DNA of 64,000 nucleotides. Source: a virus. How positions within the stretch are numbered: the stretch's first letter is position 1; every line of letters starts with the position of its first letter. The notes below the pieces were generated by a model. It made no database searches, was not told where the DNA came from, and worked only from the letters and a program-made list of their open reading frames with translations. Location of the stretch: the IMG/VR virus record IMGVR_UViG_3300047546_001496, positions 31,379 to 95,378 of that record; one strand, 5' to 3'. This document shows positions 21,722-56,395 of the stretch, piece by piece. Both the position numbers and the translations under genes were made by a program.

Positions 21722-22489
21722 ATGAAATCTGAAATACTGGCAACGCTAGAGTATTCTAAAAATTTAATAATCTCGCCAGACATGGACGGTTTTGTTTCGG
21801 CGCAGTTATTAAATCGTTATAACGGATATAAAGTCGTAGGCACATATGACAAGAATGTTCTTTGCCTTTCGCCAGGAATTAGTCCTAGAGATTGTTTGTT
21901 CGTTGACTGCGATATGAATCATCCAGATTATGTTTCAATTGGCAATCATATGCGTTTGCAAAATGATAATATGTCGTCGAAAAGTTTTAACCCCAATATT
22001 CATTTTGGCATAACTAAGTACAGCGACAAGTTTCCATTTGCTACAGCATATTTGATTGCATACGCAACAGGAATTAAAACATCGGCGACAGAGATGATAC
22101 GCATGGCCTACGCTGACTCCACCCTACGCAATATGGAATCTTACAGCGAGAACATGCGAACATGGTCTGATAGGATGAATTGTCCTGCAGTAGAATATGT
22201 TATCCACAACACAAATGTTGCCAAGGAAATTGACGAGGGTATACGGAACATTTATACCAAACAATCCTTCACTAATCGTCAATATGGCAAAACCCGATAT
22301 ATACAGGAATTGTCCAAAAACCTTATAGCCGAAAATGTTTCACATGAAACAATCAATAGGGCATATAAATATAAAACCGATAAAGTAGGTTTGACAACCG
22401 TAAAGAAATATATGTGTGATATTTTCTCATATGCTGAAGTATTCGGAGGAGAGTATTCTATTACGTATTATGATCGTATGGAGTGGTAA
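21722..22489 (+). CDS. DHH-like phosphoesterase
   Basis: SPDMDG motif I, FVDCD motif II, GNH in place of DHH. Confidence 0.5.
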   Translation: MKSEILATLEYSKNLIISPDMDGFVSAQLLNRYNGYKVVGTYDKNVLCLSPGISPRDCLFVDCDMNHPDYVSIGNHMRLQNDNMSSKSFNPNIHFGITKYSDKFPFATAYLIAYATGIKTSATEMIRMAYADSTLRNMESYSENMRTWSDRMNCPAVEYVIHNTNVAKEIDEGIRNIYTKQSFTNRQYGKTRYIQELSKNLIAENVSHETINRAYKYKTDKVGLTTVKKYMCDIFSYAEVFGGEYSITYYDRMEW

Positions 22490-24797: not shown

Positions 24798-24965
24798 TTA
24801 TTTCACCAAACTTTCTAATTCGTCAATTCTTACACTTTGGACAGTGTATCCATGTTCTACTAGACTATCTAGTAGGTCATTTATTTGAGTTTCATTTAGC
24901 ATGAACTTATCTAGGGTGGTCAATTCCACACCCTCTTTTTCTACTGTGTAACTTAGTTTTAGCAT
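24798..24965 (-). CDS. 55-aa hypothetical protein
   Basis: AGAAAGG RBS, downstream of a PafBC-type promoter. Confidence 0.6.
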   Translation of the reverse strand: MLKLSYTVEKEGVELTTLDKFMLNETQINDLLDSLVEHGYTVQSVRIDELESLVK

Positions 24966-24997
24966 TTTCTTTTGCTACCTTTCTTTTTAGTAATCTA

Positions 24998-25020
24998 ATC
25001 TTATACCCTGCCACTGACAA
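24998..25020 (-). promoter_or_regulatory. PafBC/RecA-NDp-type promoter
   Basis: TTGTCAGTG-8nt-TAAGAT. Confidence 0.65.
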
Positions 25021-25058
25021 ATTGGGGTGTCTGTGGGGTGTGTCCCCTGTGATTTACC

Positions 25059-25238
25059 TCACAAACCTACTATGTCTGTACCATAGTAGTCTATGGCTTG
25101 AGGTAGCCTCATCATACCCTTGTATTCTCTACAACTAGGGCAGAAAGCGTTCCACCCGTCTGTTATTGTTGAACAAAATACACAAACCTTATCCATGGCG
25201 CATAAGCCATTTTTTTCTATAAATTCCATTGTATCCAT
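25059..25238 (-). CDS. Small Zn-ribbon protein
   Basis: CVFC...CPSC; AGAAAGG RBS. Confidence 0.6.
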   Translation of the reverse strand: MDTMEFIEKNGLCAMDKVCVFCSTITDGWNAFCPSCREYKGMMRLPQAIDYYGTDIVGL

Positions 25239-25270
25239 TTTTAGTTTTCCTTTCTTTTTGTTATAGGAGA

Positions 25271-25487
25271 ATAATAACACAGAGGACTGACAAAATCAAG
25301 CCCTGCTTCGGCGTGTCGCTAAACTATTTTTGTGGTGTTAGTCACATGTCCAATATGTCCGAATTCACGTGCCCTGTGGATAACTATGTGGATAACCTAG
25401 TGTGGTATAGGTCACATGTGAGGTATATCACAATGTCCGATTTATCCTATTTATACCCTCGAAAATGTCAGACCCCTATGTTAGGAT
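25271..25487. promoter_or_regulatory. Divergent control hub: two PafBC-type promoters, GACAC site, three CRP-type sites, two DnaA boxes, two 9-bp TGTCC repeats
   Basis: All motifs read directly; see findings. Confidence 0.75.
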
Positions 25488-25520
25488 ACTTGTATTAGAT
25501 AAAAAAGAAAGGACAATAAA

Positions 25521-25754
25521 ATGTCACTAGAAAAAAAATTAGATAAAGTAATCGCTTCAGGCTACCAAGCATGGAGCCATGTTCCACAATTCTACAATGA
25601 CTACAATGAAAAGGGTAATGACCCTACTTGTAAGCATGAAACTTGGACAGATAAGTGGGGCGTATCAACACGCCAACCTTACTTCAATAGATACTGCGAT
25701 ACCTGCGGATACCGAAAGTTATTCGTAAAATACGCTAAGTATTGTAAGAAATAA
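25521..25754 (+). CDS. Small Zn-binding hypothetical protein
   Basis: CKH...CDTCG; AGAAAGG RBS. Confidence 0.6.
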   Translation: MSLEKKLDKVIASGYQAWSHVPQFYNDYNEKGNDPTCKHETWTDKWGVSTRQPYFNRYCDTCGYRKLFVKYAKYCKK

Positions 25755-25769
25755 AAAATAAATAAAAAT

Positions 25770-25807
25770 CCTGTGAGCCTTACTAAATAAGTAAGCAAAT
25801 AATCAGG
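25770..25807 (+). ncRNA. Structured leader module UGAGCC..GCAAAUAA (single)
   Basis: CCTG/CAGG outer stem, TTACT/AGTAA inner stem. Confidence 0.5.
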
Positions 25808-25844
25808 TCAGCAAAAGAAAATCTCTTGAAAGGAGAATTGTAAA

Positions 25845-26054
25845 ATGAGTAAATTAGAAATTTTTCGTATAAATGAAAATGGTGCTGGTTGGGTTGATTT
25901 TAATCAGGCTACTACTAGCGAATTGTTAGATGTTGAATTAGGTTTAATAACTAATCAAATAAAAATGAATTGTTTCAAATGCCATGTAGAAATTCCTCGT
26001 GGTAATGTTTGTGTAAATCATAAAGATGTGAAAGGGGGAATTTACCTTGACTAA
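25845..26054 (+). CDS. Small Cys-containing hypothetical protein
   Basis: GAAAGGAG RBS. Confidence 0.6.
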   Translation: MSKLEIFRINENGAGWVDFNQATTSELLDVELGLITNQIKMNCFKCHVEIPRGNVCVNHKDVKGGIYLD

Positions 26055-26205
26055 AAAAAATGTTCTTATCAGTTTCATAACTGAATCAGATACAGACTTA
26101 GGTGCTGTGTTTGATCTAAATAAAATCTTTCTAGCGTTGTCAGAAAACGATTTGAAAAAGTTTGATGTATTTGATGTTCTAGATGTTGTAGAATAAAAAT
26201 AAAAA

Positions 26206-26231
26206 TTGCGGAACTAAAAATTCCGCAAAAA
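26206..26231 (+). terminator. Hairpin TTGCGGAA/TTCCGCAA, possible terminator
   Basis: 8-bp inverted repeat after a gene end. Confidence 0.4.
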
Positions 26232-26350
26232 TTCACGTCAATGTCCGATTTGCACCTTTTGCGGTGTGGTCTAAATCACACACGACACGCCGAGAAATAA
26301 TTTGACTTTTTGAGATTTTTGTGATAGTATTCTACTATAACAATTAAATA

Positions 26351-26403
26351 AGGGTATGAGCCTAGCAAATAATCCGAAAGGTGAGCCTAGCGAATAAGAC
26401 CCT
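26351..26403 (+). ncRNA. Structured leader module UGAGCC..GCRAAUAA (double, pseudo-symmetric)
   Basis: AGGGT/ACCCT outer stem, CC-GAAA-GG cap, between promoter and RBS. Confidence 0.55.
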
Positions 26404-26433
26404 AAAACTACTAAAGAAAGGTTGGTTCAACTT

Positions 26434-26532
26434 ATGGACTATTTAGACTACATGGACGAAATCTATGAGGAACTCGTCTCAGAATTTGGACACGAAATTG
26501 AAGAAAAGTGTGAGCATAATCACACCGCCTAA
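26434..26532 (+). CDS. 32-aa acidic peptide
   Basis: MDYLDYMDEIYEELVSEFGHEIEE...; AGAAAGG RBS. Confidence 0.55.
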   Translation: MDYLDYMDEIYEELVSEFGHEIEEKCEHNHTA

Positions 26533-26606
26533 GCGTGTTTCAGATTTGACTTTTTGACAAAAAAATGAAATAATAGATTTATTAGAAACTAAAGAAAGGA
26601 AAACTA

Positions 26607-26807
26607 ATGTCTGCTAATTTATACTCAATTGAAAGCCTACTAATAGGCAAAACTTATCGCTCAAAAACCCTAACAGGTGAAATCATTTCAGCAGAAAAAC
26701 ACCCTGCTTGTGTATGGTATGACAACGCTGAGGCGTATCTTGTCGGTGTTCGTAGCGAGGGTGGGCGTTATACCTACCGCACTATCGCAGTTAGGAATAA
26801 TGACTAA
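26607..26807 (+). CDS. Hypothetical protein
   Basis: YSIE.LL.G..YR...GEI..AEK; paralog of 27685..27885. Confidence 0.7.
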   Translation: MSANLYSIESLLIGKTYRSKTLTGEIISAEKHPACVWYDNAEAYLVGVRSEGGRYTYRTIAVRNND

Positions 26808-26924
26808 TGAAATTAGATGAATTCAAGAAACTTGTTGAAAGCCAGCGAGAAATTACTCGCTTGACTAACTTAGAGAAAATCGCTACAATTGTCAATAACA
26901 CTAAAGAAAAGGAAAAGAACTAAA

Positions 26925-27182
26925 ATGACAAACTTCACTTATACAGACTACCACTTTACAGCAGACGGAATAAATTTTGTCTCTCGTATCGCTGACCATT
27001 CGCCATTCTTAGGCGCACTAAAAAATATTCCTGCTGAACAATTTATTGAAATGAATATTCAAGCCGTTCAAGAATTACTAGGCAGACCTTCACTAATGAC
27101 GCAGGCAGAAATTCTCGCAGAATTAGAGCGTGTCAATGAAGGCGCAACTCATTCATGGATTTTGTTAGGAGCGAACGCCTAA
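26925..27182 (+). CDS. Hypothetical protein
   Basis: ATG after AAGGA RBS. Confidence 0.6.
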   Translation: MTNFTYTDYHFTADGINFVSRIADHSPFLGALKNIPAEQFIEMNIQAVQELLGRPSLMTQAEILAELERVNEGATHSWILLGANA

Positions 27183-27373
27183 TGATGACAAGAAAAGACT
27201 ATGTAAAAACTTCAAACATCCTAAAAGGATTTGTGGATGAAATTCATCCGCAGGTCTTTGAGGATTTAGTAGAAGAATTTGCTCAATACTTTCAAAGCGA
27301 CAATGAAAGATTTGACAAAGCAAAATTTGAAAAGGCTTGTGGCGTTGATGAAATTGGTTTAATTCCTGTCTAA
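27182..27373 (+). CDS. Conserved small phage protein
   Basis: MTRKDY...F..DN.RFD..KF..ACG. Confidence 0.7.
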   Translation: MMTRKDYVKTSNILKGFVDEIHPQVFEDLVEEFAQYFQSDNERFDKAKFEKACGVDEIGLIPV

Positions 27374-27684
27374 TGCCTAAAACAAAATTCGCTACTTGTG
27401 AGATCTGCGGAAGAATTTTTGTCGCAGATCTAAAATGTTTTGCATGTGCTGCAAAAAATAATTAAGTAGCGAATATTTTTTTTCCTGGAATTTGCTGCTA
27501 AAAAATTTTTTCAAAAAAAATGACGTCCCGCACTCGGGCGTGTCGTCCACAGGTTTATCCACAGGCTGTTTAAGATGTGATTATTATCACACCCGAATTT
27601 TTTTCTTAAATTACGGCGTGTCGATTTGATTTTACGGATAAAAAATGATACGCTGGAAGCCTAAAAATAAAGAAAGGAAATTCA

Positions 27685-27885
27685 ATGAGAAGTTATTCAA
27701 TTGAAGATTTACTTGTAGGTCAGTATTATAGACCTACTTCTTTTGCCCGTAAATATCAGGGTGGAGAAATAAATTTCGCTGAAAAGCGTGATGATGTTTG
27801 GGTAGGTACTGATTATCAGGCTTATTCAATTCGTTTCAATGGACATAAATGGGCAACCATTGCTGTAAAAGTATCAGACCTATAA
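27685..27885 (+). CDS. Hypothetical protein
   Basis: Paralog of 26607..26807. Confidence 0.7.
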   Translation: MRSYSIEDLLVGQYYRPTSFARKYQGGEINFAEKRDDVWVGTDYQAYSIRFNGHKWATIAVKVSDL

Positions 27886-27903
27886 GAAAGGAAATAAAAT
27901 AAA

Positions 27904-28401
27904 ATGGGTTTAGACATGTATCTAAGTGCTCGTAAGCACATAAATAAAATTGAATGGGATAAGTTAGATCGTGATAGCGATACTAAATATTCTGAGGCTA
28001 CCGCTCCACAATGGAACGATGTAGTAAATGCTGCTGGTGTTGATTCGCTTGTAGATAAAGAAAGTATCTATGGCGTAGATGTAATGGTAAATGTTGCCTA
28101 TTGGCGTAAGGTAAATTCTGTTCATGGCTGGTTTGTAAATAATGTACAGAATGGTGAAGATGACTGTGGTGAATACTATGTATCTCACGCTAAACTAAAA
28201 CAATTGGTAAATGACTGTACTCTAGCGGTTACTAATAAAGACCCTAGCCTAATTCCGCCTGTTGGTGGATTTTTCTTCGGCGGTACTGATATTGACCAAT
28301 GGTATTGGCAAGACCTAATGGATACCATAAATCAATTACAGCCCCTTATTGATAGACCTGATTTTGAGCGTCTGTCATTCTACTATCAGTCCTCTTGGTA
28401 G
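27904..28401 (+). CDS. Conserved phage protein (MGLDMYL..YWRK family)
   Basis: MGLDMYL...YWRKVNSVHGWF...YYQSSW. Confidence 0.75.
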   Translation: MGLDMYLSARKHINKIEWDKLDRDSDTKYSEATAPQWNDVVNAAGVDSLVDKESIYGVDVMVNVAYWRKVNSVHGWFVNNVQNGEDDCGEYYVSHAKLKQLVNDCTLAVTNKDPSLIPPVGGFFFGGTDIDQWYWQDLMDTINQLQPLIDRPDFERLSFYYQSSW

Positions 28402-28493
28402 GACAAAACGGACATATCGGACAGGGCGTGTCGGATTTGATTTTGTCACCCCTATCTGATAGGATTTCAGTATTGAAAGAAAGGAAATAAAAA

Positions 28494-28706
28494 ATGGATA
28501 AATTGGAATACGCACTAAGGCAGATTAGAAACTGCGATTTTTGTGGTGGTAAAGGTAATCTCTATTATGGCAACGGAGAGGACTTTGATTTTGAGGTATG
28601 CCCTTGTAATACCTATGAACTAATCCTAGATGATGACGGCTCTGTAATTTGGGATAATGGACTACTAAGTGAGCCTGAACTATTCGCAACAATGGAGGCT
28701 AACTAA
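28494..28706 (+). CDS. Small CxxCxGxG Zn-finger protein
   Basis: CDFCGGKG...CPC. Confidence 0.65.
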   Translation: MDKLEYALRQIRNCDFCGGKGNLYYGNGEDFDFEVCPCNTYELILDDDGSVIWDNGLLSEPELFATMEAN

Positions 28707-28707
28707 A

Positions 28708-28989
28708 ATGGGAAGTAATTTTGCTAATGATTTGGCTCTTGCTGATAATCTTGATATTGAAACTCAGATAGGAATACACCTAAAGTCTAATCACTACCCG
28801 CCCGTTCCTGATTTCATGGTTCAACCTTGTGTTGAAGCCATAGATGCGGTGAATGATGCTGGGCTATGGGATTTGGAAATACCTATGCCTGAAGGCGTAA
28901 CCTATAAAGGCTTGACTACTGCTCCTGCGTGGGCTATTATTGAACAACACCACCTAGATGCGTGGATTATTGAAAGAGAGGAATACTAA
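28708..28989 (+). CDS. Hypothetical protein
   Basis: HL.SNHYPPVP...IIEQHHL; GGAGG RBS. Confidence 0.65.
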   Translation: MGSNFANDLALADNLDIETQIGIHLKSNHYPPVPDFMVQPCVEAIDAVNDAGLWDLEIPMPEGVTYKGLTTAPAWAIIEQHHLDAWIIEREEY

Positions 28990-28990
28990 A

Positions 28991-29206
28991 ATGGAATATC
29001 TATATTCTGTAACCTGCACCTACGATAGCGAAACTGCCCCTAGATGGATAGGTCGTTATAGTGATGCAATTTCGGCTGTTGAAACTTATCAAAAGTTTGT
29101 TGATTGGGGAACTGCTGTTGAATACTCAACTATCAACTTATCAGAACCTAATGGCAAAATGCACACTAAGATTTTCTATAAAGACGGAAGCGTGAGTGGA
29201 AAATAA
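28991..29206 (+). CDS. Hypothetical protein
   Basis: ORF in operon. Confidence 0.6.
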   Translation: MEYLYSVTCTYDSETAPRWIGRYSDAISAVETYQKFVDWGTAVEYSTINLSEPNGKMHTKIFYKDGSVSGK

Positions 29207-29464
29207 ATGTCTGCTACAATGATAAGCATGGATAACTTTGTATTCGTTGATCAATTACTTCCCGACCAATTACTGGAAGGGGATTTAATTGAATTTTCTG
29301 ATGAATATGCAACCGAAATTGGAAGAGTTATTAATGTTGAATCTACATATGAAAATAATGAATATACTTATGTAATTCAAGGTAGAAATGACTTTGATGA
29401 AATTCTTGAAATTGTTGTTAATGATTCAGAATATTTAAAATTATTTATTGTGCGTGACGAATAA
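29207..29464 (+). CDS. Acidic hypothetical protein
   Basis: ORF in operon. Confidence 0.55.
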   Translation: MSATMISMDNFVFVDQLLPDQLLEGDLIEFSDEYATEIGRVINVESTYENNEYTYVIQGRNDFDEILEIVVNDSEYLKLFIVRDE

Positions 29465-29548
29465 AAACCGCACGTCCCGCCCGATTTGTCCGATTTGTTA
29501 AGAACCTCCCGATTTGATTTTTGTATTTTTTTATGATAAGATTATTTT

Positions 29549-29686
29549 ATGAGAAAGAAAACTGCTGAGGAATTAAGGCGCTTAATGGAATTGCGCCGAT
29601 CTAATGCTGCTCAACCATTAAGGAACAAAAAAAATTATTCCCGAAAGATTAAGCACAAAAAATTTGACATCTCTGAAAATAAATGA
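29549..29686 (+). CDS. 45-aa highly basic peptide
   Basis: MRKKTAEELRRLMELRRSNAAQPLRNKKNYSRKIKHKK...; leaderless behind TTGATT-17-TAAGAT. Confidence 0.6.
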   Translation: MRKKTAEELRRLMELRRSNAAQPLRNKKNYSRKIKHKKFDISENK

Positions 29687-29714
29687 TAAAATAAAAGAAA
29701 AGAAAGGACCCATA

Positions 29715-30428
29715 ATGCTAAAACGCTCTATGGATAGGAAGGTGACTAATGCAGTCTCAAAAAATGGAAAGACCCCAACAATTGCCAACACTTTTGGATT
29801 ACCTGCTGGTAAAGATTTCTCGTGCCCTGGTGCCACCCCAACTTGTACAACTATTTGTTATGCAGGAAAACTCGAAAAAGTCTATAAAGGAGTAAAGGCA
29901 GTATTACTCCATAACTGGGAATTACTTAAAGACGCTAATCAAGAAACGATGATTAGTTTATTGTCTGACATGATTGCAGACTTTAGAAAAGATTGTGAAA
30001 AGAAAAATGCACCCTTACTATTTCGTATTCACTGGGATGGGGATTTCTTCTCTGATACCTATACCAATGCATGGAAAATAGTAATTCTAAATAATCCTGA
30101 CATTAAGTTTTGGGTTTATACTCGTGTACCTAGTGCAGCGACAATTCTTAATAAGATAGATAATCTATCTCTCTATTTCTCTACTGATAAAGATAACACC
30201 GAAAACGCTAAAAGTGTAAATGCGCTAGGTGTACGCCTTGCATACCTTGCAGATACTTTCGCAATAGGTCAAGCAGACTTAAAGGCTATGATTGGTAAGG
30301 TAGGCGCAAAGTGTCCTGAGAATAAAAAGGCTATTCCCTTAATTGACAAAGACGGCTCTGCCTGTGTAAAATGTAGTCTATGCGTAGATAATAAGGCAGA
30401 CATAGTATTTAGCGCAAAGAAAAGGTAG
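29715..30428 (+). CDS. Gene-product-88-like Fe-S (radical-SAM-like) protein
   Basis: FGLPAG..SCPGAT..C...CYA, FRIHWDGDF, WVYTR, C..C..C. Confidence 0.75.
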   Translation: MLKRSMDRKVTNAVSKNGKTPTIANTFGLPAGKDFSCPGATPTCTTICYAGKLEKVYKGVKAVLLHNWELLKDANQETMISLLSDMIADFRKDCEKKNAPLLFRIHWDGDFFSDTYTNAWKIVILNNPDIKFWVYTRVPSAATILNKIDNLSLYFSTDKDNTENAKSVNALGVRLAYLADTFAIGQADLKAMIGKVGAKCPENKKAIPLIDKDGSACVKCSLCVDNKADIVFSAKKR

Positions 30429-30603
30429 GCTATGAGATCTGAGTATTGGATAATAATAGGGTTATTACTATTTACCCTCTCAATGTGGGGGAGTAATGGG
30501 CTATAAATCTCAAAATGTGAGATTTTTAGATTTGGACTTGACAACCAATAAAATAAATGTCATAATAAATACAAGAAATACCAACCTAACGAAAGGAAAC
30601 AAA

Positions 30604-30771
30604 ATGGCAGTAAATACCGCAACATACAAGGTAGGCGACCTCTACACCTCACAGAAATCAAAGGTTACAGGCACTATCACAGAAATCAAGCCAAACAAAG
30701 ACGGAAACTCCGTTCGTGTCAAACTTGATGTAAATGGCTCACCTCGCTGGACAACTTGGACAGCGAAGTAA
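30604..30771 (+). CDS. Small beta-barrel hypothetical protein
   Basis: TY.VGDL.T..K...TG.I; paralog of 31399..31566. Confidence 0.7.
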   Translation: MAVNTATYKVGDLYTSQKSKVTGTITEIKPNKDGNSVRVKLDVNGSPRWTTWTAK

Positions 30772-30786
30772 TTTAGCAAACGCTAA

Positions 30787-30818
30787 CCTGTCCTGAGCAT
30801 GACAAGGCTAAACTGCTC
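30787..30818 (+). ncRNA. Mini-pseudoknot motif, copy 1
   Basis: TGTC-CTGAGCAT-GACA-aggctaaac-TGCTC. Confidence 0.7.
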
Positions 30819-30886
30819 ACTTGATTTTTAGCACTAAAAATGCTAAACTATAAATAACCCAAAAACCCAAACGAAAGGATAAACAA

Positions 30887-31309
30887 ATGGCTAGAAATGG
30901 CAAAGCGATAAATGTAAAAATCGCTACAACTAAAGTAGTCAAGGCACTAGAAAGTGCGTTGGCTAAGTTAGATAAAGACTTCGCTTCACAAGAGGCGAAC
31001 GAGGCAAAGCACGACAAAGCAGTAAAGGCATGGAATAAAGAGGTTGCCAAACTTGCTATGGGTGCTATCAACAAGGCAGAGGATTTATCTGCTCATACAA
31101 GATACAATGGCGAAATCCAAGTATCTTTCTCACTACCTAAAGGTTCTATTGAAATCCCTGCTGAACCTAAGAAAGACTACAACTCTATCCATGAGTGGCA
31201 GTATCGTGAGCAAAAAGAGGAAATTGAGAACGCAATTCGTATTCTCAAGATGACAGATGAGGAAGTAGTTTCTACTTCTACTTACAACGCTATCGCAAGA
31301 TACTTGTAA
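30887..31309 (+). CDS. Hypothetical protein
   Basis: Own promoter and GAAAGGA RBS. Confidence 0.7.
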   Translation: MARNGKAINVKIATTKVVKALESALAKLDKDFASQEANEAKHDKAVKAWNKEVAKLAMGAINKAEDLSAHTRYNGEIQVSFSLPKGSIEIPAEPKKDYNSIHEWQYREQKEEIENAIRILKMTDEEVVSTSTYNAIARYL

Positions 31310-31398
31310 TTAGATAGGCAGGGGAGGGTATTTGACTTCCCTGCCAAAATCTAGTAAAATAATAATAAGACCCAATAAACAGAAAGGCAAGAAAAAAA

Positions 31399-31566
31399 AT
31401 GACATTAGGCGGATACACTTACCAAATCGGTGATTTATTCACAACAAGCAAAACAGGAATTACAGGTCGTATTGAGAAGTTCGTTCCAATGCGTCACAAT
31501 GTAACAAAGGTAATGCTTCGCTTGGCAAATAATCAAACTCGATTTGCTATGGTAAAGACATACTAA
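31399..31566 (+). CDS. Small beta-barrel hypothetical protein
   Basis: Paralog of 30604..30771. Confidence 0.7.
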   Translation: MTLGGYTYQIGDLFTTSKTGITGRIEKFVPMRHNVTKVMLRLANNQTRFAMVKTY

Positions 31567-31635
31567 GTTTCTTTCCTGATAAGCCCCGCTAAAAAATGAA
31601 GTGGCGAAAGTCCTTGCGGGTATTCCTGGAAAGAT

Positions 31636-31662
31636 CATCCTGAGCATGATGTAAAACTGCTC
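31636..31662 (+). ncRNA. Mini-pseudoknot motif, copy 2
   Basis: CATC-CTGAGCAT-GATG-taaaac-TGCTC. Confidence 0.7.
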
Positions 31663-31791
31663 CACCTCCAAAAACCCCACGTGGGCCTGTGATCTTTATC
31701 ACACCGACACGCCATAAATTTTTAAGACTGGACTTGTATTTTCCCCTATTTTTTGCTAGACTTGTTACAAGACCCAAAGAAAGGAAACAAA

Positions 31792-32067
31792 ATGATAGCG
31801 ACAATGCTAGGACTACAAAATGCAACACAGGAAGCGGTTCATGACCCAATTATAATGAACATGGCTTCTGCTATTTATCATCACAAAGACGAAATGTCAT
31901 CAGAGGAATTTGCTAGGGCTTTATTTGAATACTCTGCTGCTCTTTCATCTATGACAACAACTCTCGTGACCCATGTATTATTGACACAAGAACAATTAGA
32001 TGTTATGCTAGATACTATTAGAGAATTTGATGAACTAGGAAAGGACATCTCAAATGGAAACGAATAA
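31792..32067 (+). CDS. Hypothetical protein
   Basis: GAAAGG RBS and promoter. Confidence 0.65.
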   Translation: MIATMLGLQNATQEAVHDPIIMNMASAIYHHKDEMSSEEFARALFEYSAALSSMTTTLVTHVLLTQEQLDVMLDTIREFDELGKDISNGNE

Positions 32068-32506
32068 TGAAACCGTGGCTCCAGTCCACTACAACCCAAA
32101 TCAATTGGTAACCTATAAAGTTATTGATTTAGATGCAACGGACCAAACCGTACAGTACCCAACTATCAAAGTTGTAGACCTTGAATGGGAACTTGAACAG
32201 GGCCGTCGTAAGTCGAAGAGGCTGAATGAATACGTAGAAAAAGTTGGCCATGTAGAAAATAGACTGGCTGATTATTTAGAAATGGACGCAGAAGACATTG
32301 TCTCTGAACTATGCAATATTTTTGGATTCAATCCAACCAAGGAAATTGAATTTGAAGCAACCGCAACAATTACTGGAAGGGTTAGTGTTCCACTAGCGGA
32401 CCTATCAACATTTGACATTGAAGATATCGATTTGACTGTTTATGCAGATTCGCATTCACATGATGTTGATGTTGATGTAGAAGTTGACAACATCTCAATG
32501 CTATAA
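32054..32506 (+). CDS. Acidic hypothetical protein
   Basis: AAGGA RBS. Confidence 0.65.
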   Translation: METNNETVAPVHYNPNQLVTYKVIDLDATDQTVQYPTIKVVDLEWELEQGRRKSKRLNEYVEKVGHVENRLADYLEMDAEDIVSELCNIFGFNPTKEIEFEATATITGRVSVPLADLSTFDIEDIDLTVYADSHSHDVDVDVEVDNISML

Positions 32507-32510
32507 AAAT

Positions 32511-32612
32511 TTGCGGGGTTCATGAAAGGCCCCGCAATGTATGCAGCATCCCTCTTTCATCCTTTCTTTCAGGGATCTGCAAGGGACCTGAGCATGTCCA
32601 TGTAAACTGCTC
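32511..32612 (+). ncRNA. Candidate sRNA: two hairpins (anti-SD loop) plus mini-pseudoknot copy 3 (32584-32612)
   Basis: Two strong stems; GGAC-CTGAGCAT-GTCC-atgtaaac-TGCTC. Confidence 0.6.
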
Positions 32613-32755
32613 CCTCCAAAAATCCACGTCCCGCAAAGGGATTTTGTCAAGTTTACGGACAGTCTGGACAATTCGGACATTTTGCTTAACAGGATTTGCT
32701 TTTGTCGCTGGGTTGTGCTAAGATAGATTCTAAATGACCACAGAAAGGAAAAAAA

Positions 32756-33775
32756 ATGGCTCATGAATTAGAAACACAAAATGGTGTTGCTTCTTTTGCT
32801 TCTTTCAGAGAACCTGCTTGGCATGGCTTAGGCACAGTTTTCACAGAAGAAAAAAATACTAGCGAAATGCTAGTTGCTGCTAATCTAAATAATTGGAATG
32901 TTAGATTGGCTGATGTTGAAATTCCAAATACACTTACCTCAGACAAAAATTACTTTTTTGTAGTAAGAGATAATCCTACCGATAAATCACAAACAGATGT
33001 TCTTGGTGTTGTCGGTGAGCGTTATCATGTTTTACAGAATGAAGATTTATTCTCATTCGGTGATACTCTCCTAGATGGTGGTGGTCGTTGGGAAACTGCT
33101 GGCTCTATTCGTGGAGGTCGTGTTGTATTCGGCTCTCTTGCTCTTGAGCGTGAAACAGTATTAGACCCTAATGGTGTTGCGGATAAGGTAAAGACTTATC
33201 TTCTTATCAATACATCTCACGATGGTTCTATTGCTATTCAAGCATCTATCACGCCCGTTCGTGTTGTATGCGCTAACACTCTAAACCTTGCTCTTGGTGG
33301 CGTAGGTCGTAAGAAAAAAGGCGTAAAGCAATCTTTCAAGATTCGCCACACACAAACCGCTAATGGTAAAGTCCAAATTGCTCGTGAGGCTCTTGGTCTT
33401 GCTAATGCTTACATGGACGAATTCGATAAAATGGCTCATGCTATGATTCAACACGAAATCACAGCACAGCAATTTAACGATATTGTTCTTGCTGCTTATC
33501 CAAAGCCTGAAAGCGATAAGAAAATCGCACTCACCAAATGGACAAATAAAGTTGATACTATCAACGATATTTACACAGGTGAATTTAATGGCATGATTGC
33601 TGGTTCTGCTTGGGGTGCGTTCAATGCGCTAACCGAAAGATTAGATTGGCATCGTTCTGCTCGTGGTGGAAATAATGAGGCAATGCTTGCTGCTGCTTCT
33701 GGTTTTGACGCTACAATTACAGCAGAAAAAAATCGTTTGCTAAAAGTTGTAAAAGATGTTTTAGCAATAGCGTAA
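32756..33775 (+). CDS. DUF932 / TIGR03299-type phage-plasmid protein
   Basis: REPAWHGLG, ETAGS..GG.V, NTSHDGS, TPVRVVCANTL, IRHT. Confidence 0.85.
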   Translation: MAHELETQNGVASFASFREPAWHGLGTVFTEEKNTSEMLVAANLNNWNVRLADVEIPNTLTSDKNYFFVVRDNPTDKSQTDVLGVVGERYHVLQNEDLFSFGDTLLDGGGRWETAGSIRGGRVVFGSLALERETVLDPNGVADKVKTYLLINTSHDGSIAIQASITPVRVVCANTLNLALGGVGRKKKGVKQSFKIRHTQTANGKVQIAREALGLANAYMDEFDKMAHAMIQHEITAQQFNDIVLAAYPKPESDKKIALTKWTNKVDTINDIYTGEFNGMIAGSAWGAFNALTERLDWHRSARGGNNEAMLAAASGFDATITAEKNRLLKVVKDVLAIA

Positions 33776-33786
33776 ATAAATTCGCA

Positions 33787-33813
33787 ACTCCTGAGCACGA
33801 GTATAAACTGCTC
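33787..33813 (+). ncRNA. Mini-pseudoknot motif, copy 4
   Basis: ACTC-CTGAGCAC-GAGT-ataaac-TGCTC. Confidence 0.7.
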
Positions 33814-34287
33814 AAATTTTTTTTGCAATCGCTGATCTAAAATAAAAAATTGCAAAAAACCCCACGTGAATTCGGACATTTCGGACATAACATTTTTAGA
33901 AAATTTAATTACGAAGCGCTTGCTTTTTTCCCTGAATTTTGGTATGATTAATTCATGACTCAAACCTACAAACCTTACACCGTAAACGAACTCGTTATGG
34001 CTTTATGGGAAGATAACATGTCCCATTTTGAATTTATGGAATCCATGAATGGCGGGGACTGTGATTGTGCCCTGCATACTACTATGAATACTATCTATCC
34101 TTACTTATGACAGACATCGTACTTTCATGGTCTGATTTAGCAGATCTAACACATGAGACTCAGGTAGAATTATTTAATTTCTGTACCTGCGAAGACCCTG
34201 ATTATGATAAGCCATATTCTGACTGCCCTTGACATTCCCCTGCATTTTTGCTAAAATATAATTACGACCTAACAGAAAGGACCCATA

Positions 34288-34974
34288 ATGCCAAATTGGT
34301 GTTATAACTATCTATCCATAGAGGGTAGTGCAAAAGATATCTCCACTATCAAGGCTCAACTCAATACTCCATTTGAGGTAATGCATGACAACTGGAATTC
34401 TGAAACAAGACAAATGGAAAAGAAAATGTATAAATACTCTAAACCAGTATTTGCATTCTGGAACATTGTCAAACCCACAAACCTAAAAGCCTATAATGGT
34501 CCACAACCTGAAACAGATTTATCTAAAGGTGTTACTTTTGAATCAGACCATTGGTATGACTGGAATGTTCGCAATTGGGGAACTAAGTGGGATGTTGCTG
34601 TATCTGATGAAGAGAAGTATTCTGAGACTGAGTTGACTGATGAGGGTAAGAAGTTTCTTTCCTATCGTTTCAACACTGCTTGGTCCCCTCCTACTGAGGC
34701 AATAACAAAACTATCTGAACAATATCCTGATTTAGTTATTACTCTATCCTTTGAGGAAGAGACTGGTTGGGGTGGAGAGATAGTTTTTGAAAATGGCGAG
34801 GGTGCAGAAACAGAATCCTATGGCTGGAAGTGTAAAGAGTGCGACCATACAGAGGAAGAAACACCATTTTGTGAAGATTGTGACTTTGACACTTGCCCAA
34901 GTTGTGGATATAATGAAGCAGATGAGGCATGCGAACAACACAGAGAGGGACATAATGCACACTTATTTGCTTGA
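34288..34974 (+). CDS. DUF1281/Api92-like ferredoxin-like-fold protein with C-terminal Cys cluster
   Basis: MPNWCYN...WYDWN..NWGTKWD...FNTAWSPP. Confidence 0.8.
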   Translation: MPNWCYNYLSIEGSAKDISTIKAQLNTPFEVMHDNWNSETRQMEKKMYKYSKPVFAFWNIVKPTNLKAYNGPQPETDLSKGVTFESDHWYDWNVRNWGTKWDVAVSDEEKYSETELTDEGKKFLSYRFNTAWSPPTEAITKLSEQYPDLVITLSFEEETGWGGEIVFENGEGAETESYGWKCKECDHTEEETPFCEDCDFDTCPSCGYNEADEACEQHREGHNAHLFA

Positions 34975-35164
34975 ATATATGAAGGCACATCTAATTAGTT
35001 TAGAACAAGACCAAGAAGAGATAGAAAAACAAATGGAAAATTTAGATATGAATTCTAAAGAGTTCCTAGAGTTAGATTTTGAATTTAACTGGTTGGGTGG
35101 GCAGGCTATTGCTACCCGCCACTTTATAAAAATAGCAGAGGAGTATAATGGAACTGCAGCCTAG
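34955..35164 (+). CDS. Hypothetical protein
   Basis: GAGGGA RBS. Confidence 0.55.
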   Translation: MHTYLLEYMKAHLISLEQDQEEIEKQMENLDMNSKEFLELDFEFNWLGGQAIATRHFIKIAEEYNGTAA

Positions 35165-35417
35165 TCTACAGAGACAGGTGGACCATGGTTCATCTGGTCT
35201 TGATATATTACATGGTGCCCTTAAAGTTCTCATGGTGGACGCAGAAGATGAACTACGTATGGCCCAAGAGACCGAAGAGGCCAATGACTATGACGACGCT
35301 ATGGAATCTATGGAGCGTAAATACTGGGAGGGACAGGTAGACGCTCTTGCACATTTATATGAACTCACATATGCATTATCATTCGCTATAGCAGAAAGGG
35401 AAAGCAGCAATGCCTAA
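35148..35417 (+). CDS. Hypothetical protein
   Basis: GAGGAG RBS. Confidence 0.6.
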   Translation: MELQPSLQRQVDHGSSGLDILHGALKVLMVDAEDELRMAQETEEANDYDDAMESMERKYWEGQVDALAHLYELTYALSFAIAERESSNA

Positions 35418-35684
35418 TTACAGCATAGAGGTTATTCATGAGCCTACGGGTACATTTATGAACTTTACTGTCGATTCAGATCTAGAAGAGGACCAGGTTT
35501 GGAACGAGGTTTTGTCCGATTTGTCCGTAGTTGCTTTTTCAAAGGATAACTGATACAATGGCAATAAACCCTACAGAAAGGAAATAATAATGGCTATGGA
35601 ATACATTGACGGAGAACTAGTGTTCTTTGAGGATGAAGAAATAGATTTAATTGATGAAGAGCAAGATGAGGACGAGGAGTAATC

Positions 35685-36047
35685 GTGGGAGATAGAATCG
35701 TCTACACAATCAAACAAGATAATAATTTATCAGTTAACCTGTACAGCCACTGGGGTGGCAGCGATAGGTTTGAGTCCCTGGCGAATGCATTACATGCAGC
35801 AATGCCAAGGTGGAATGACACATCCTATGCAACACGCATTATCGTATCTCAGTTGATTGGCAACCAATGGGATGAGGAGACAGGCTTTGGTCTATGGGCC
35901 AGCAATAGTGACGGGGCATATGGAGGAGACCATCCAGATATCACTATTGATTTAATTAATAAGACTGTAGAAGATGAGACTGGCATTCATGACTTTGAAA
36001 GTTTTATTACTTATCATAAAGGCTTTGTGACGACGGTCACATCATAA
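35685..36047 (+). CDS. Conserved phage hypothetical protein
   Basis: MGDR...LYSHWGG...RWND.SY. Confidence 0.7.
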   Translation: MGDRIVYTIKQDNNLSVNLYSHWGGSDRFESLANALHAAMPRWNDTSYATRIIVSQLIGNQWDEETGFGLWASNSDGAYGGDHPDITIDLINKTVEDETGIHDFESFITYHKGFVTTVTS

Positions 36048-36140
36048 AGAGGGTTGGGTCCCCTCTATACGGGGGCGTGGGTTATCTTGCCAACTTGCGC
36101 CCCCTTCTAATTTTTGGTACAATCTATAGGAAGGAGCATA

Positions 36141-36395
36141 ATGTCTAGATATAGTGTTAGAAGGCCTACACATAATAAAGAATCAAGGGCAGCCGAGCAG
36201 ATTGCTAAGTTGCTTACACAAGACATGGCTCTTGACTTAGAGCGTGTTGGATATTATTTAGTCAGAAATCTTCCTAGAATTGTTTATCATCGCCTTGAAG
36301 TCATGGCCTTGTCAGCACAGGAAGAATCTGCTATACTTATGGGTGAGTATGAAAAGGATAGAGGCAGGGGAATAAGTTATGGACTTCGCAGATAA
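36141..36395 (+). CDS. Hypothetical protein
   Basis: AAGGAG RBS. Confidence 0.6.
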   Translation: MSRYSVRRPTHNKESRAAEQIAKLLTQDMALDLERVGYYLVRNLPRIVYHRLEVMALSAQEESAILMGEYEKDRGRGISYGLRR

Positions 36396-36705
36396 GACAG
36401 GTGTTCTGGCACAATGCTGGATCGACTTTAGAGATGATGACAACTTCAAGGAGTTCATCAAATACAACGACCTTGGGTTGCCAATGGCTTACATGATGGC
36501 GCAGGGACTAATAAATGAACTCACACCACTAGGCGAGGAATATATAACAGAATCTTTCAAGATGCTTATAGATATCCTAGATGTTAGTGAAGAAGATATT
36601 GACGCAGTCTTGCCTAATAAAGACCTTGGCGCTATCTTAGTATTTGCCTACAATAAAAAGCGCTTCAAAGAACTAGACGAAAAAAACAAGAACAAAGATA
36701 ATTAA
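36379..36705 (+). CDS. Hypothetical protein
   Basis: YNDLGLPMAY motif. Confidence 0.6.
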   Translation: MDFADKTGVLAQCWIDFRDDDNFKEFIKYNDLGLPMAYMMAQGLINELTPLGEEYITESFKMLIDILDVSEEDIDAVLPNKDLGAILVFAYNKKRFKELDEKNKNKDN

Positions 36706-36732
36706 GCGGGACGTGAATTCGGACATATGGTA

Positions 36733-37475
36733 CAAACCACCCAAACCATTATATCCAGATAGATTACGAACCAGAAGATTACGATCCCAAACCATATATC
36801 CCCAAACCTTATACCATAATATTTTTGGTTTGTCAAACCTTCAAACCATAGTGTATGATTGTATCTCTATGTATTCTATATAGGGTATTACGATCTCTTC
36901 TTTATTCCCCGCCGTTTTTTGGCGGGCTTCAAACCAGTGTTATAATGATTATATGAGTCCCCGTCACTTTGCTAAGATGTATCAAACTAAAAACCAACAC
37001 AGGCATGATCAACAATCTGATTGGGACTCGTTTACGAAAGACATGACGGTTTTGACGGGCATGTTGTATACAATTGCAAAGGCACCTCTCAAACCATTCA
37101 TCCCTGCATTCTACAAAACTGCGAGGGAAGTTAAAAAAGATTACGAACTCCTCTATAATCCCCCTAATGAAGAGTAACAAACCATATTTCCTGGTTTTCT
37201 GGTTTTTTAAAACCTTTTAAAAAGTATTACGAACTTATTCGAATTTTTCCTGGATTTTGGCAATTTTTCATCCAAAATCTATTACGAAGACACTTGACAA
37301 ACCATGGTTTTGGATGTATAATGCCAAACCTTTATACAATGGTTTGACAATATCGAGCAAATATGGTACAAGGGTTTGTCCGATATGATGGTTTGGGATA
37401 GATGGTTTGTCCAAAAGATTACGACGCCCCCTTTAAAAGCGCTCCATAACCCACTATCCTCCACTTTACTCCACT
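36733..37475. repeat. Iteron-like field of CAAACC/GGTTTG and ATTACGA repeats
   Basis: 11 CAAACC, 5 GGTTTG and 7 ATTACGA counted by eye in about 700 bp. Confidence 0.75.
36953..37177 (+). CDS. Hypothetical protein
   Basis: TGTTATAAT leaderless start, inside the repeat field. Confidence 0.45.
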   Translation: MSPRHFAKMYQTKNQHRHDQQSDWDSFTKDMTVLTGMLYTIAKAPLKPFIPAFYKTAREVKKDYELLYNPPNEE

Positions 37476-37543
37476 TTAACCCTATTCAATAATATAATCA
37501 GTAAGATTTATTTATGGATAACTATCTAGTGTATAATAAAAAC

Positions 37544-48221: not shown

Positions 48222-48244
48222 ATTGTAATTATAGCATGTAAAAT

Positions 48245-48271
48245 GAGCAGTTTATCCACATGCTCAGGTGG
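48245..48271 (-). ncRNA. Mini-pseudoknot motif, copy 5
   Basis: CCAC-CTGAGCAT-GTGG-ataaac-TGCTC, 8 nt after the hsp20 stop. Confidence 0.7.
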
Positions 48272-48279
48272 TATTTTAT

Positions 48280-56104: not shown

Positions 56105-56395
56105 TCATTTGTCTTCCTCCAAGGTTAGATGTTGCCAAACATTGGCCCAATCCTGTGCTGTCTTGTGATCATTAAACTCTTTGGATGGATTACCAGCATC
56201 TAAATAAATACCGCCCCAAACGCCGTACTCTTTACTTGATACCCCTACAGCAAAACAAGTTTTTGATACTGGACACTTTAGACATAGTAAGTCTATTGCA
56301 GGCCTTAAAGAAATGTCTTCTTCATACTTATCAAAAAATAAATTTGTATCATAATCAAGGCACGATGCCTGATCTTTCCATTTAAGTTTGTGCAT
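56105..56395 (-). CDS. whiB: WhiB-family Fe-S transcription factor
   Basis: W...ASC...FF...C..CPV...C...YGVWGG. Confidence 0.92.
   Translation of the reverse strand: MHKLKWKDQASCLDYDTNLFFDKYEEDISLRPAIDLLCLKCPVSKTCFAVGVSSKEYGVWGGIYLDAGNPSKEFNDHKTAQDWANVWQHLTLEEDK

Follow-up and report, generated by a model that had tools for sequence, protein, structure and literature searches.

The terminal redundancy of the Bacillus phage SPO1 is reportedly a host-takeover module of about 11–13 kb with very small genes. The module is said to consist of a dozen or more short operons with strong host sigma-A promoters and strong Shine–Dalgarno (SD) sequences, and to be expressed first. We know of no arrays of host global-regulator sites at SPO1 early promoters. 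A gene block of similar design is described here, located at 24.97–37.5 kb of a 64,000-nucleotide stretch of viral DNA (positions 31,379–95,378 of the IMG/VR record IMGVR_UViG_3300047546_001496). This whole stretch is hereafter called the window, and its coordinates are used throughout. The virus is a lytic freshwater actinophage (hereafter the lake phage). The intergenic DNA of the predicted early block contains short words similar to the binding sites of actinobacterial global regulators, and the proteins that may read these words are considered below.

The lake phage and SPO1 have in common an 11–13 kb block of about 24–36 very small genes in many short operons, and the traits of a takeover region of the SPO1 or T5 type, namely many tiny genes, short operons, strong host-type promoters and strong SD sequences, were all found in the window. 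However, the host of SPO1 is a Firmicute, and the terminal-repeat location of the block in the lake phage is suggested by analogy, above all with the BE-cluster phages described below: as in SPO1 and in the first-step-transfer DNA of T5, the segment 25.3–37 kb may form a terminal repeat and may be the earliest DNA to act in the cell. Visual inspection of contig ends among relatives of the lake phage gave a distribution without a clear boundary signal. In T5-like phages, host DnaA boxes are located in the non-coding, first-expressed, terminal-repeat-type DNA of the injection-stop region (bioRxiv 10.1101/866236). Relatives of the lake phage likewise carry a zone of DnaA boxes and iterons at the edge of the block, whereas the boxes in the block are mostly tandem pairs upstream of promoters, and two-step injection is not known in the lake-phage group.

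Among cultured phages, the Streptomyces phage Jay2Jay (BE cluster, NC_029098) contains a homologue of the DUF932 gene of the lake phage in a direct terminal repeat of about 11 kb (PMC5764925). It was found that this repeat holds 25 small genes, and that the gaps between them consist of a terminator hairpin, GTCCGnCCCGGACA or AAATCGGACAT words, a promoter and an SD sequence. The repeat boundaries carry TTACGA and GGTACATA iterons and are similar to 36.7–37.5 kb of the lake phage. The two phage groups share the DUF932 gene (52% identity), a MerR-like helix-turn-helix (HTH) protein (present in relatives of the lake phage) and a layout in which a hairpin, GGACA words, a promoter, an SD sequence and an open reading frame (ORF) follow one another. 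A literature search found no paper describing the GGACA-type words of Jay2Jay.

Operator words in the early block

In the block, which covers 13% of the genome, about 36 small genes are grouped into some 18 short units; the five genes left of 25.24 kb are on the minus strand and the remainder on the plus strand. Every unit is preceded by a promoter of the sigma-A type and by the strong ribosome site AAGAAAGGA. This SD word has nine copies in the genome (1.8 expected), and all nine are inside 24.9–37.5 kb, over the stretch 25.2–35.6 kb. Structural and auxiliary genes have shorter ribosome sites or none, so that translation signals differ by gene class.

The small genes are separated by 19 intergenic blocks. 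Ten operator blocks were mapped, at 24966–25058, 25239–25520, 26197–26433, 27466–27684, 28402–28493, 29465–29714, 31567–31791, 32507–32755, 33776–33954 and 36706–36952; about seven promoters are bare, without operator words. In a typical block, a hairpin and/or a GAGCA...TGCTC element is followed by an A-tract and CACGT(C/G), then by a variable mix of words, a −35 with an extended −10, an SD sequence and small ORFs. The original prediction, made from the letters of this DNA, had placed such blocks at these positions, with a loose grammar of A-tract, ACGT core, mixed words, promoter, SD and small ORFs and with a different mix of words in each block; the blocks are present, the layout matches, and block-by-block mapping bore out the differing mixes.

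Expected word counts were obtained from 100 Markov-1 simulations of the genome, with the region defined as 24.9–37.5 kb. The perfect palindrome TGTGA-N6-TCACA occurs six times in the genome (0.13 expected), the word GGCGTGTCG, called the G-box below, six times (0.04 expected), and A[AT]TTCGGAC five times (0.8 expected), with every copy in the region. TCGGACA is present in 12 copies, 11 of them in the region (3.3 expected in the genome), and three of the six copies of the DnaA-type word TTATCCACA are in the region (1.6 expected in the genome). An unbiased k-mer test, which was used to find words concentrated in the region, revealed ATGTCCGA (7/7 copies in the region) and CCGATTTG (6/6). When the intergenic DNA of the region alone (3.1 kb) was simulated, the observed count was reached in 0 of 500 runs for any word, and the remaining non-coding DNA of the genome (5.4 kb) contains 0–1 matches. 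A lack of such enrichment had been named beforehand as grounds for giving up the proposal; the words are enriched, and the supposed near-absence of the sites from other intergenic regions was confirmed.

The ACGT core stood in part. It is frequent in the blocks of the lake phage, but it is mostly specific to this phage and rare in relatives (40 copies in 21 full relatives). The tetranucleotide is about 3-fold depleted genome-wide, with 36 copies against 117 expected, and 10 of these 36 are within the early region, mostly as the CACGT(C/G) word. This suggests that an ACGT-specific restriction is avoided and that the copies in the operator slots are functionally retained.

In 80 related loci (1.34 Mb, guanine–cytosine (GC) content 34–40%), 311 perfect palindromes, 242 G-boxes, 349 TTATCCACA, 705 ATTACGA and 369 CAAACCAT words were found. 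In 21 loci with full flanks, the words are confined to −9 to +5 kb relative to the DUF932 gene. Crp, G-box and DnaA words occupy −8 to −5 kb, a structured element is found at −2 to +1 kb, and the zone from +4 to +5 kb contains ATTACGA/CAAACCAT iterons and 44 DnaA-type boxes. Gene content differs among the relatives, many related contigs end inside the region, and promoter, terminator and structured elements are reiterated, as would be expected if the blocks were module boundaries that aid recombinational shuffling of gene cassettes, with the likeness to host sites being incidental. We consider this explanation highly improbable: the blocks contain different sets of conserved words, all of them short, and therefore provide no long homology for recombination, while the fact that the words are conserved at set positions with respect to the −10 points to a transcriptional role.

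Similarity of the words to regulator sites

Among the five site types named in the original prediction, Crp, BldC, DnaA and PafBC match published consensus sequences in both sequence and geometry, but WhiA is weak. The Crp and BldC labels of the words appear strong, the DnaA and PafBC-type labels good and the WhiA label weak.

The crystallised BldC operator consists of two 9-bp head-to-tail AATTCGGAC units; the general form of the unit is AATTNNNN(C), in which a C-G pair follows an AT-rich tetrad at a distance of four bases (PMC5859096). In the lake phage, four copies of AATTCGGAC, identical to the crystallised unit, and one of ATTTCGGAC were found, all in the region, against 0.1 expected. The tandem AATTCGGAC-ATTTCGGAC at 33869–33886 equals the crystal operator except for one base. 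Same-strand GGACA neighbours are 9 bp apart in 97 pairs across the family, with only five pairs at the runner-up spacing, and the intergenic DNA of the region contains five pairs in the 9-bp register against none in 500 simulations. As in the Streptomyces operators of whiI and smeA-ssfA (PMC5859096), the 9-bp units are arranged head to tail with two to three per site. In contrast to these operators, the predicted sites are in a phage genome upstream of early promoters, and the host BldC is deduced at class level. Using as a probe a BldC orthologue 85% identical to PDB 6AMA, BldC was found in 175 of the 201 sampled genomes of the class, including genomes of 1.0–1.5 Mb, with about 80% identity; this tally includes six unpublished genomes (G012, G020, G029, G035, G041, G048), on which no specific claim depends.

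Six perfect sites in the lake phage have the form of a Crp/GlxR operator, that is, a 16-bp palindrome with an A/T-rich centre. In 222 unique family sites the spacer is t-n-W-W-n-a, in agreement with the GlxR consensus TGTGANNTANNTCACA (PMC4254451), and its two central positions are 88% A/T, with 1% G or C at the disfavoured base. Of 51 anchored cases, many of which are orthologous, 24 have the centre of the palindrome 52.5 nt ahead of the −10 start. This position is upstream of the −35, at a distance of about 30 bp.

Three perfect DnaA boxes were found in the region, compared with 0.2 expected; the other half of the perfect boxes are outside it, at 22200, 48252 and 48491. The DnaA-type boxes are mostly tandem, 11–12 bp apart (79 pairs in the family), as are those at 25375 and 25387 of the lake phage.

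The arrangement of these sites bears on the proposal that the array is a decoy, which, once injected, would titrate Crp, BldC, DnaA and PafBC of the host, the more so when the DNA has replicated, control of the phage's own genes being secondary. The sites are indeed clustered, they are multimeric for BldC and DnaA, a DnaA-box-rich untranslated zone adjoins the block in relatives, and the first-injected DNA of T5 carries a comparable DnaA-box array (bioRxiv 10.1101/866236). Nevertheless, the sites are at fixed offsets from promoters, which argues for transcriptional coupling rather than mere sequestration, and each genome copy supplies only about six Crp and three DnaA sites. A decoy role is therefore improbable.

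A second promoter class was recognised by its −26 element. In the published PafBC (RecA-NDp) motif tGTCgg-N10-tA(N3)T, GTC at −26 replaces the −35 (PMC8635444). We collected 1,359 promoter contexts (a −10-like hexamer with an SD and a start codon, picked irrespective of the upstream sequence). In 128 of them TGTC is placed precisely 16 nt ahead of the −10 start, and no other offset accounts for more than 14. A TGTCAG element sits exactly 10 nt before the −10. The consensus of this class is ttgaaaaTGTCAGtccc...TGnTAnGAT; its −35 position has only the consensus 'ttgaaa', and many copies are non-TTG. Five promoters of this class are present in the lake phage, at 24998 and 25271 on the minus strand and at 25466, 28444 and 32703. 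The leftward promoter TTGTCAGTG-N8-TAAGAT (24998..25019, minus strand) is predicted to drive the minus-strand small genes at 24798–24965 and beyond, and it is the only match to the strict RecA-NDp pattern in the genome. Upstream regions of recA in streamlined actinobacteria contain TTGTCAGTG-N8-TACCTT or TTGTCGGAG-N8-TAGGGT; hence the TTGTCAGTG 9-mer is common to the phage promoter and one streamlined actinobacterial recA promoter, and a genuine recA promoter is among those with the TGTCAG form. Like the PafBC promoters, for which 'sigma adaptation' has been described (PMC8635444, PMC8223512), the phage class combines an invariant GTC at −26 with N10 and a TAnnnT −10, and much of the class may have a weak or missing −35; the GTC and the spacing of PafBC sites are thus both found. 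It differs in having AG for GG and several usable −35s, and in driving phage early genes instead of repair genes.

The assignment of the fifth word as a WhiA-type site is weak; GACAC by itself is not enriched in comparison with the 100 Markov-1 genome simulations. The enriched word is the G-box, a 9-mer that contains GACAC and is specific to the phage family. It occupies two fixed places: in the forward orientation it abuts the −35, and in the reverse orientation it is 10 nt upstream of the −35 (preferred offsets −34 forward and −42 reverse). WhiB and WhiA touch sigma-A region 4 (PMC10243135), and the placement of the G-box would be compatible with a factor that makes such a contact. The 8-mer GGCGTGTC, which has eight of the nine G-box bases, was observed just upstream of the LexA box in the recA leaders of two streamlined actinobacterial genomes (L107, L108); it may be due to chance or may indicate that host DNA uses the G-box as a site.

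Host lineage and candidate readers

The window is part of a single virus contig of 95,378 bp, which is 87% complete according to CheckV and has a GC content of about 35%. Minus-strand structural genes fill the left arm, a transfer RNA (tRNA) cluster is located at 42.9–46.4 kb, and there are many auxiliary genes, among them those for a carbamoyltransferase, Trp halogenase, APS kinase, sulfotransferase and 2OG oxygenases. A WhiB-family gene (56105..56395, minus strand) was found outside the early block. In each of the five genomes searched, namely the lake phage and four complete relatives of 116–120 kb, WhiB exceeded the Pfam cut-off. The DUF932 protein has 551 matches among cultured phages, nearly all of them actinophages, and the top matches belong to the Streptomyces BE cluster (about 52% identity). 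Because of the phage WhiB and these DUF932 relatives, the host lineage is considered actinobacterial despite the low GC content, as the original prediction had assumed. A low-GC Firmicute or cyanobacterial host was also considered, given the 35% GC and the cyanophage-like auxiliary genes, and was rejected on the same grounds.

More than 300 contigs related to the lake phage were found in IMG/VR, and copies are mis-binned into lake metagenome-assembled genomes (MAGs) from Mendota and Rimov. A megablast search against cultured phages gave no match. A genome scan for the host with the phage WhiB returned only phage contigs mis-binned in lake MAGs, with inconsistent taxa. By its sequence, the phage is a member of a large uncultured family of freshwater actinophages.

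The regulators in question are present in the host class. Each of five streamlined actinobacterial genomes contains one Crp-type gene (about 232 aa), three of the five contain a tandem WYL pair and four of the five contain WhiA; these genomes of 1.0–1.4 Mb show that small actinobacteria retain Crp, the WYL pair and WhiA. A host lineage without these regulators, which would have spoken against the original prediction, is thus not what is seen at class level. Conversely, no BldC homologue, Crp-type HTH, WYL protein or sigma-70 region 2 was found in five phage genomes (four of them complete), and Pfam and PHROGs scans of 38 small early ORFs revealed no DNA-binding domain. As homologues of Crp, BldC, PafBC and sigma are missing from the phages, the words are most likely read by host proteins.

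We somewhat favour the reading in which host proteins read the early block and set the levels of its cassettes according to the state of the host. Under this reading, 24.97–37.5 kb would be an early block of the host-takeover type with about 18 short transcription units, and the host RNA polymerase would read two promoter classes: canonical sigma-A promoters (TTGACA-N17-TGnTAnaAT) and promoters with a weak −35 and TGTCAG 10 nt before the −10, which have the PafBC 'sigma adaptation' architecture. About ten promoters would have an upstream operator slot, filled with differing mixes of words equal to the sites of actinobacterial global regulators (the Crp/GlxR palindrome, BldC-type units and tandem DnaA boxes) and with the family-specific GGCGTGTCG. 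Through these slots, host regulators would set the level of each early cassette by cyclic AMP (cAMP), growth or development, replication and DNA-damage state. From the words, their enrichment, conservation and fixed positions, and from the regulators present in the host class, we infer binding, a direction of regulation and an early timing. Host-state sensing by the array is plausible.

A broader version is put forward tentatively. The cassettes may form a multi-input panel, gated by different combinations of Crp (cAMP), BldC, DnaA and PafBC, which the phage WhiB joins via sigma-A region 4, and which extends through a widespread lineage of large actinophages, from the lake phages to the BE cluster. 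In such a panel, BldC would signal whether the host is growing or developing, DnaA would report on replication and PafBC on damage or single-stranded DNA, and the phage would read the physiological state of the host before committing its takeover genes. The phage WhiB is itself a marker of the host lineage and possibly a phage-side reader acting via sigma-A region 4.

Several observations weigh against host proteins as the readers. The strict PafBC consensus with GG gave no hits, bases 5–6 being AG (TGTCAG and not TGTCGG), and the promoters at 25271, 28444 and 32703 retain TTGATT- or TTTGCT-like hexamers, unlike mycobacterial PafBC promoters. The Crp centre appears to be shifted upstream by about 3 bp from the class I position of E. 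coli. Conservation of the DnaA-type box extends beyond the 9-mer to its flanks (AG...GG), giving the extended consensus AGTTATCCACAGG, and therefore another protein could read this box. Many of the family instances are orthologous copies, so the word counts overstate the number of independent events, and the regulator specificities of the host are assumed from class-level conservation. Jay2Jay shares the GGACA-type word only, with no Crp- or DnaA-type words in its first 14 kb, and its GGACA words often form an inverted repeat without a strict 9-bp register. Finally, the MerR-like protein and GGACA words are found together in both phage groups, the BE cluster being the sole other group in which GGACA words were seen in early intergenic gaps.

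The last observation would fit a scheme in which the words are operators for phage proteins that time an early-to-middle switch by turning early promoters off or boosting them, host regulators being uninvolved. The candidate readers are the MerR-like protein of 180 aa for the GGACA units, WhiB on sigma-A region 4 for the G-box, and small early proteins. The 180-aa MerR/Xis-type HTH protein is encoded in relatives (L091:1279–1818, relative G001); by synteny, its gene would be beyond the contig end of the lake phage, and it is not in the 87%-complete contig. Its homologues were found only in 127 Streptomyces BE-cluster phages. A precedent for a phage-encoded reader is Gp36 of mycobacteriophage D29, a BldC/Xis-like protein that binds direct repeats and represses early genes (PMC12266134). 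Direct-repeat operators, a BldC/Xis-like reader and early phage genes are thus common to D29 and the scheme proposed for the lake phage; but Gp36 is phage-encoded and reads GC-rich GCGGC repeats 13–19 bp apart, and no Gp36-like or BldC-like protein was detected in the lake phages searched. The family specificity of the G-box 9-mer, the extra conserved flanks of the DnaA-type box and the retention of WhiB in all five genomes also speak for phage readers. On the other hand, the words match the host consensus of four unrelated regulators base for base, which is unlikely if they evolved for phage proteins alone. The 180-aa protein has no significant BLASTP similarity to BldC, lacks the Arg that reads the C-G pair (manual alignment) and has no sequence match among solved structures. 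The phages encode no Crp-like, sigma or WYL protein, and the 38 early ORFs are without a DNA-binding domain. For these reasons we regard exclusive reading by phage proteins as rather unlikely.

Lake actinobacteria rank with the most abundant bacteria of fresh water, and hardly any of their phages have been cultured. If host proteins do read the block, it would be a compact case of a phage sensing host state via four or five host master regulators. The biology of BldC and PafBC, so far associated with Streptomyces development and mycobacterial DNA repair, would then extend to phage infection. New elements are the agreement with BldC operators in both sequence and register, the unbiased evidence for the −26 promoter class and its comparison with host recA promoters, the finding that the phages have no homologues of the regulators, and the parallel with cultured Streptomyces BE-cluster phages. 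Since the GGACA words occur in cultured BE-cluster phages, and bldC, crp, whiA and pafBC genetics are available in Streptomyces and Mycobacterium, at least the BldC part is testable at the bench.

Cassette map, structured element and boundary zone

At the left end of the block, a perfect Crp/GlxR-type palindrome matching TGTGA-N6-TCACA is located at 25048..25063. Between it and the leftward −26-class promoter, at 25020–25047, GTGGGG-type direct repeats about 11 bp apart were observed. The divergent control region (25239..25520) holds a leftward promoter (25299–25271), a G-box (25310), GGACA/AATTCGGAC units at 25350–25365 and 25434, CACGTG at 25366 and the DnaA-type boxes at 25375 and 25387, tandem and 12 bp apart. 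It also includes a perfect Crp-type palindrome at 25417, imperfect ones at 25331 and 25401, and the rightward −26-class promoter at 25466–25487.

The cassette heads that follow are all on the plus strand. The head at 26197..26433 contains a hairpin, CACGTC, a TGTCCGA unit, an imperfect Crp-type palindrome (26267), a reverse G-box (26283), a sigma-A promoter (26302–26330) and an SD sequence. At 27466..27684, an A-tract and GACGTC are followed by a G-box (27537), a DnaA-type box (27555), a Crp-type palindrome (27576), a second G-box abutting the −35 (27615), a promoter and an SD. The head at 28402..28493 has two GGACA units 9 bp apart and a G-box abutting the −35 (28425), and its promoter (28444–28465) combines a −35 with a TGTCAC −26 element. 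The head at 29465..29548 is made up of CACGTC, three units of CCGATTTG/GTCCGA, two of which are spaced by 9 bp, and a promoter. At 31567..31791, a structured element, CACGTG, a perfect Crp-type palindrome (31688), a reverse G-box (31705), a promoter and an SD were found.

The DUF932 gene (32756..33775, plus strand), which serves as the anchor of the family, is preceded by a head at 32507..32755. This head contains a hairpin, a structured element, CACGTC, three GGACA units including AATTCGGAC (32670), and the −26-class promoter (32703–32724) followed by an SD; the −35-like element, TGTC, −10 and SD are kept in relatives. The next head, at 33776..33954, consists of a structured element, CACGTG, the tandem AATTCGGAC-ATTTCGGAC, ATTACGA and a promoter. 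The bare sigma-A promoters, exemplified by that at 26546..26574 (plus strand), further include those at 29664–29692, 30538–30566, 30820–30848, 31332–31360, 34229–34257 and about 36114–36142. Near the DUF932 gene, GP88-family and DUF1281/Api92-like proteins are encoded (29715–30428 and 34288–34974); these families are typically met in the early regions of actinophages and the leading regions of plasmids.

The proposal that cassettes are closed by a structured RNA was supported by covariation. The element at 30787..30818 (plus strand) has a covarying 4-bp stem, a constant loop CUGAGCAY and a constant tail AAACUGCUC, and further copies are at 31634–31662, 32582–32612, 33785–33813 and, on the minus strand, 48245–48273 (within 48241–48277). 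In 64 unique copies, the four stem positions are paired in 100, 100, 100 and 94% of cases (39–50% for shuffled partners), and all four Watson–Crick pair types occur. The loop and the tail AAACUGCUC are both invariant and may pair to form a pseudoknot. The element is located after stop codons and before the next operator slot, and an Rfam search at gathering thresholds found only tRNAs. Its fifth copy lies, together with the perfect DnaA boxes at 48252 and 48491, between minus-strand genes of the right arm, which suggests that the cis-toolkit is used sparingly outside the early block.

The right boundary zone (36706..37513) begins with GACGTG-AATTCGGAC (36711–36724), followed by dense iterons, nine CAAACCAT and seven ATTACGA, around a small ORF of 74 aa. 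The 44 DnaA-type boxes of the 21 relative loci belong to the same zone; no perfect box is present in that of the lake phage. The zone may serve as an origin, mark the boundary of packaging or of a terminal repeat, or act as an injection-stop region like that of T5. It resembles the zones at the repeat boundaries of Jay2Jay (L106, 221–535 and 10429–10812).

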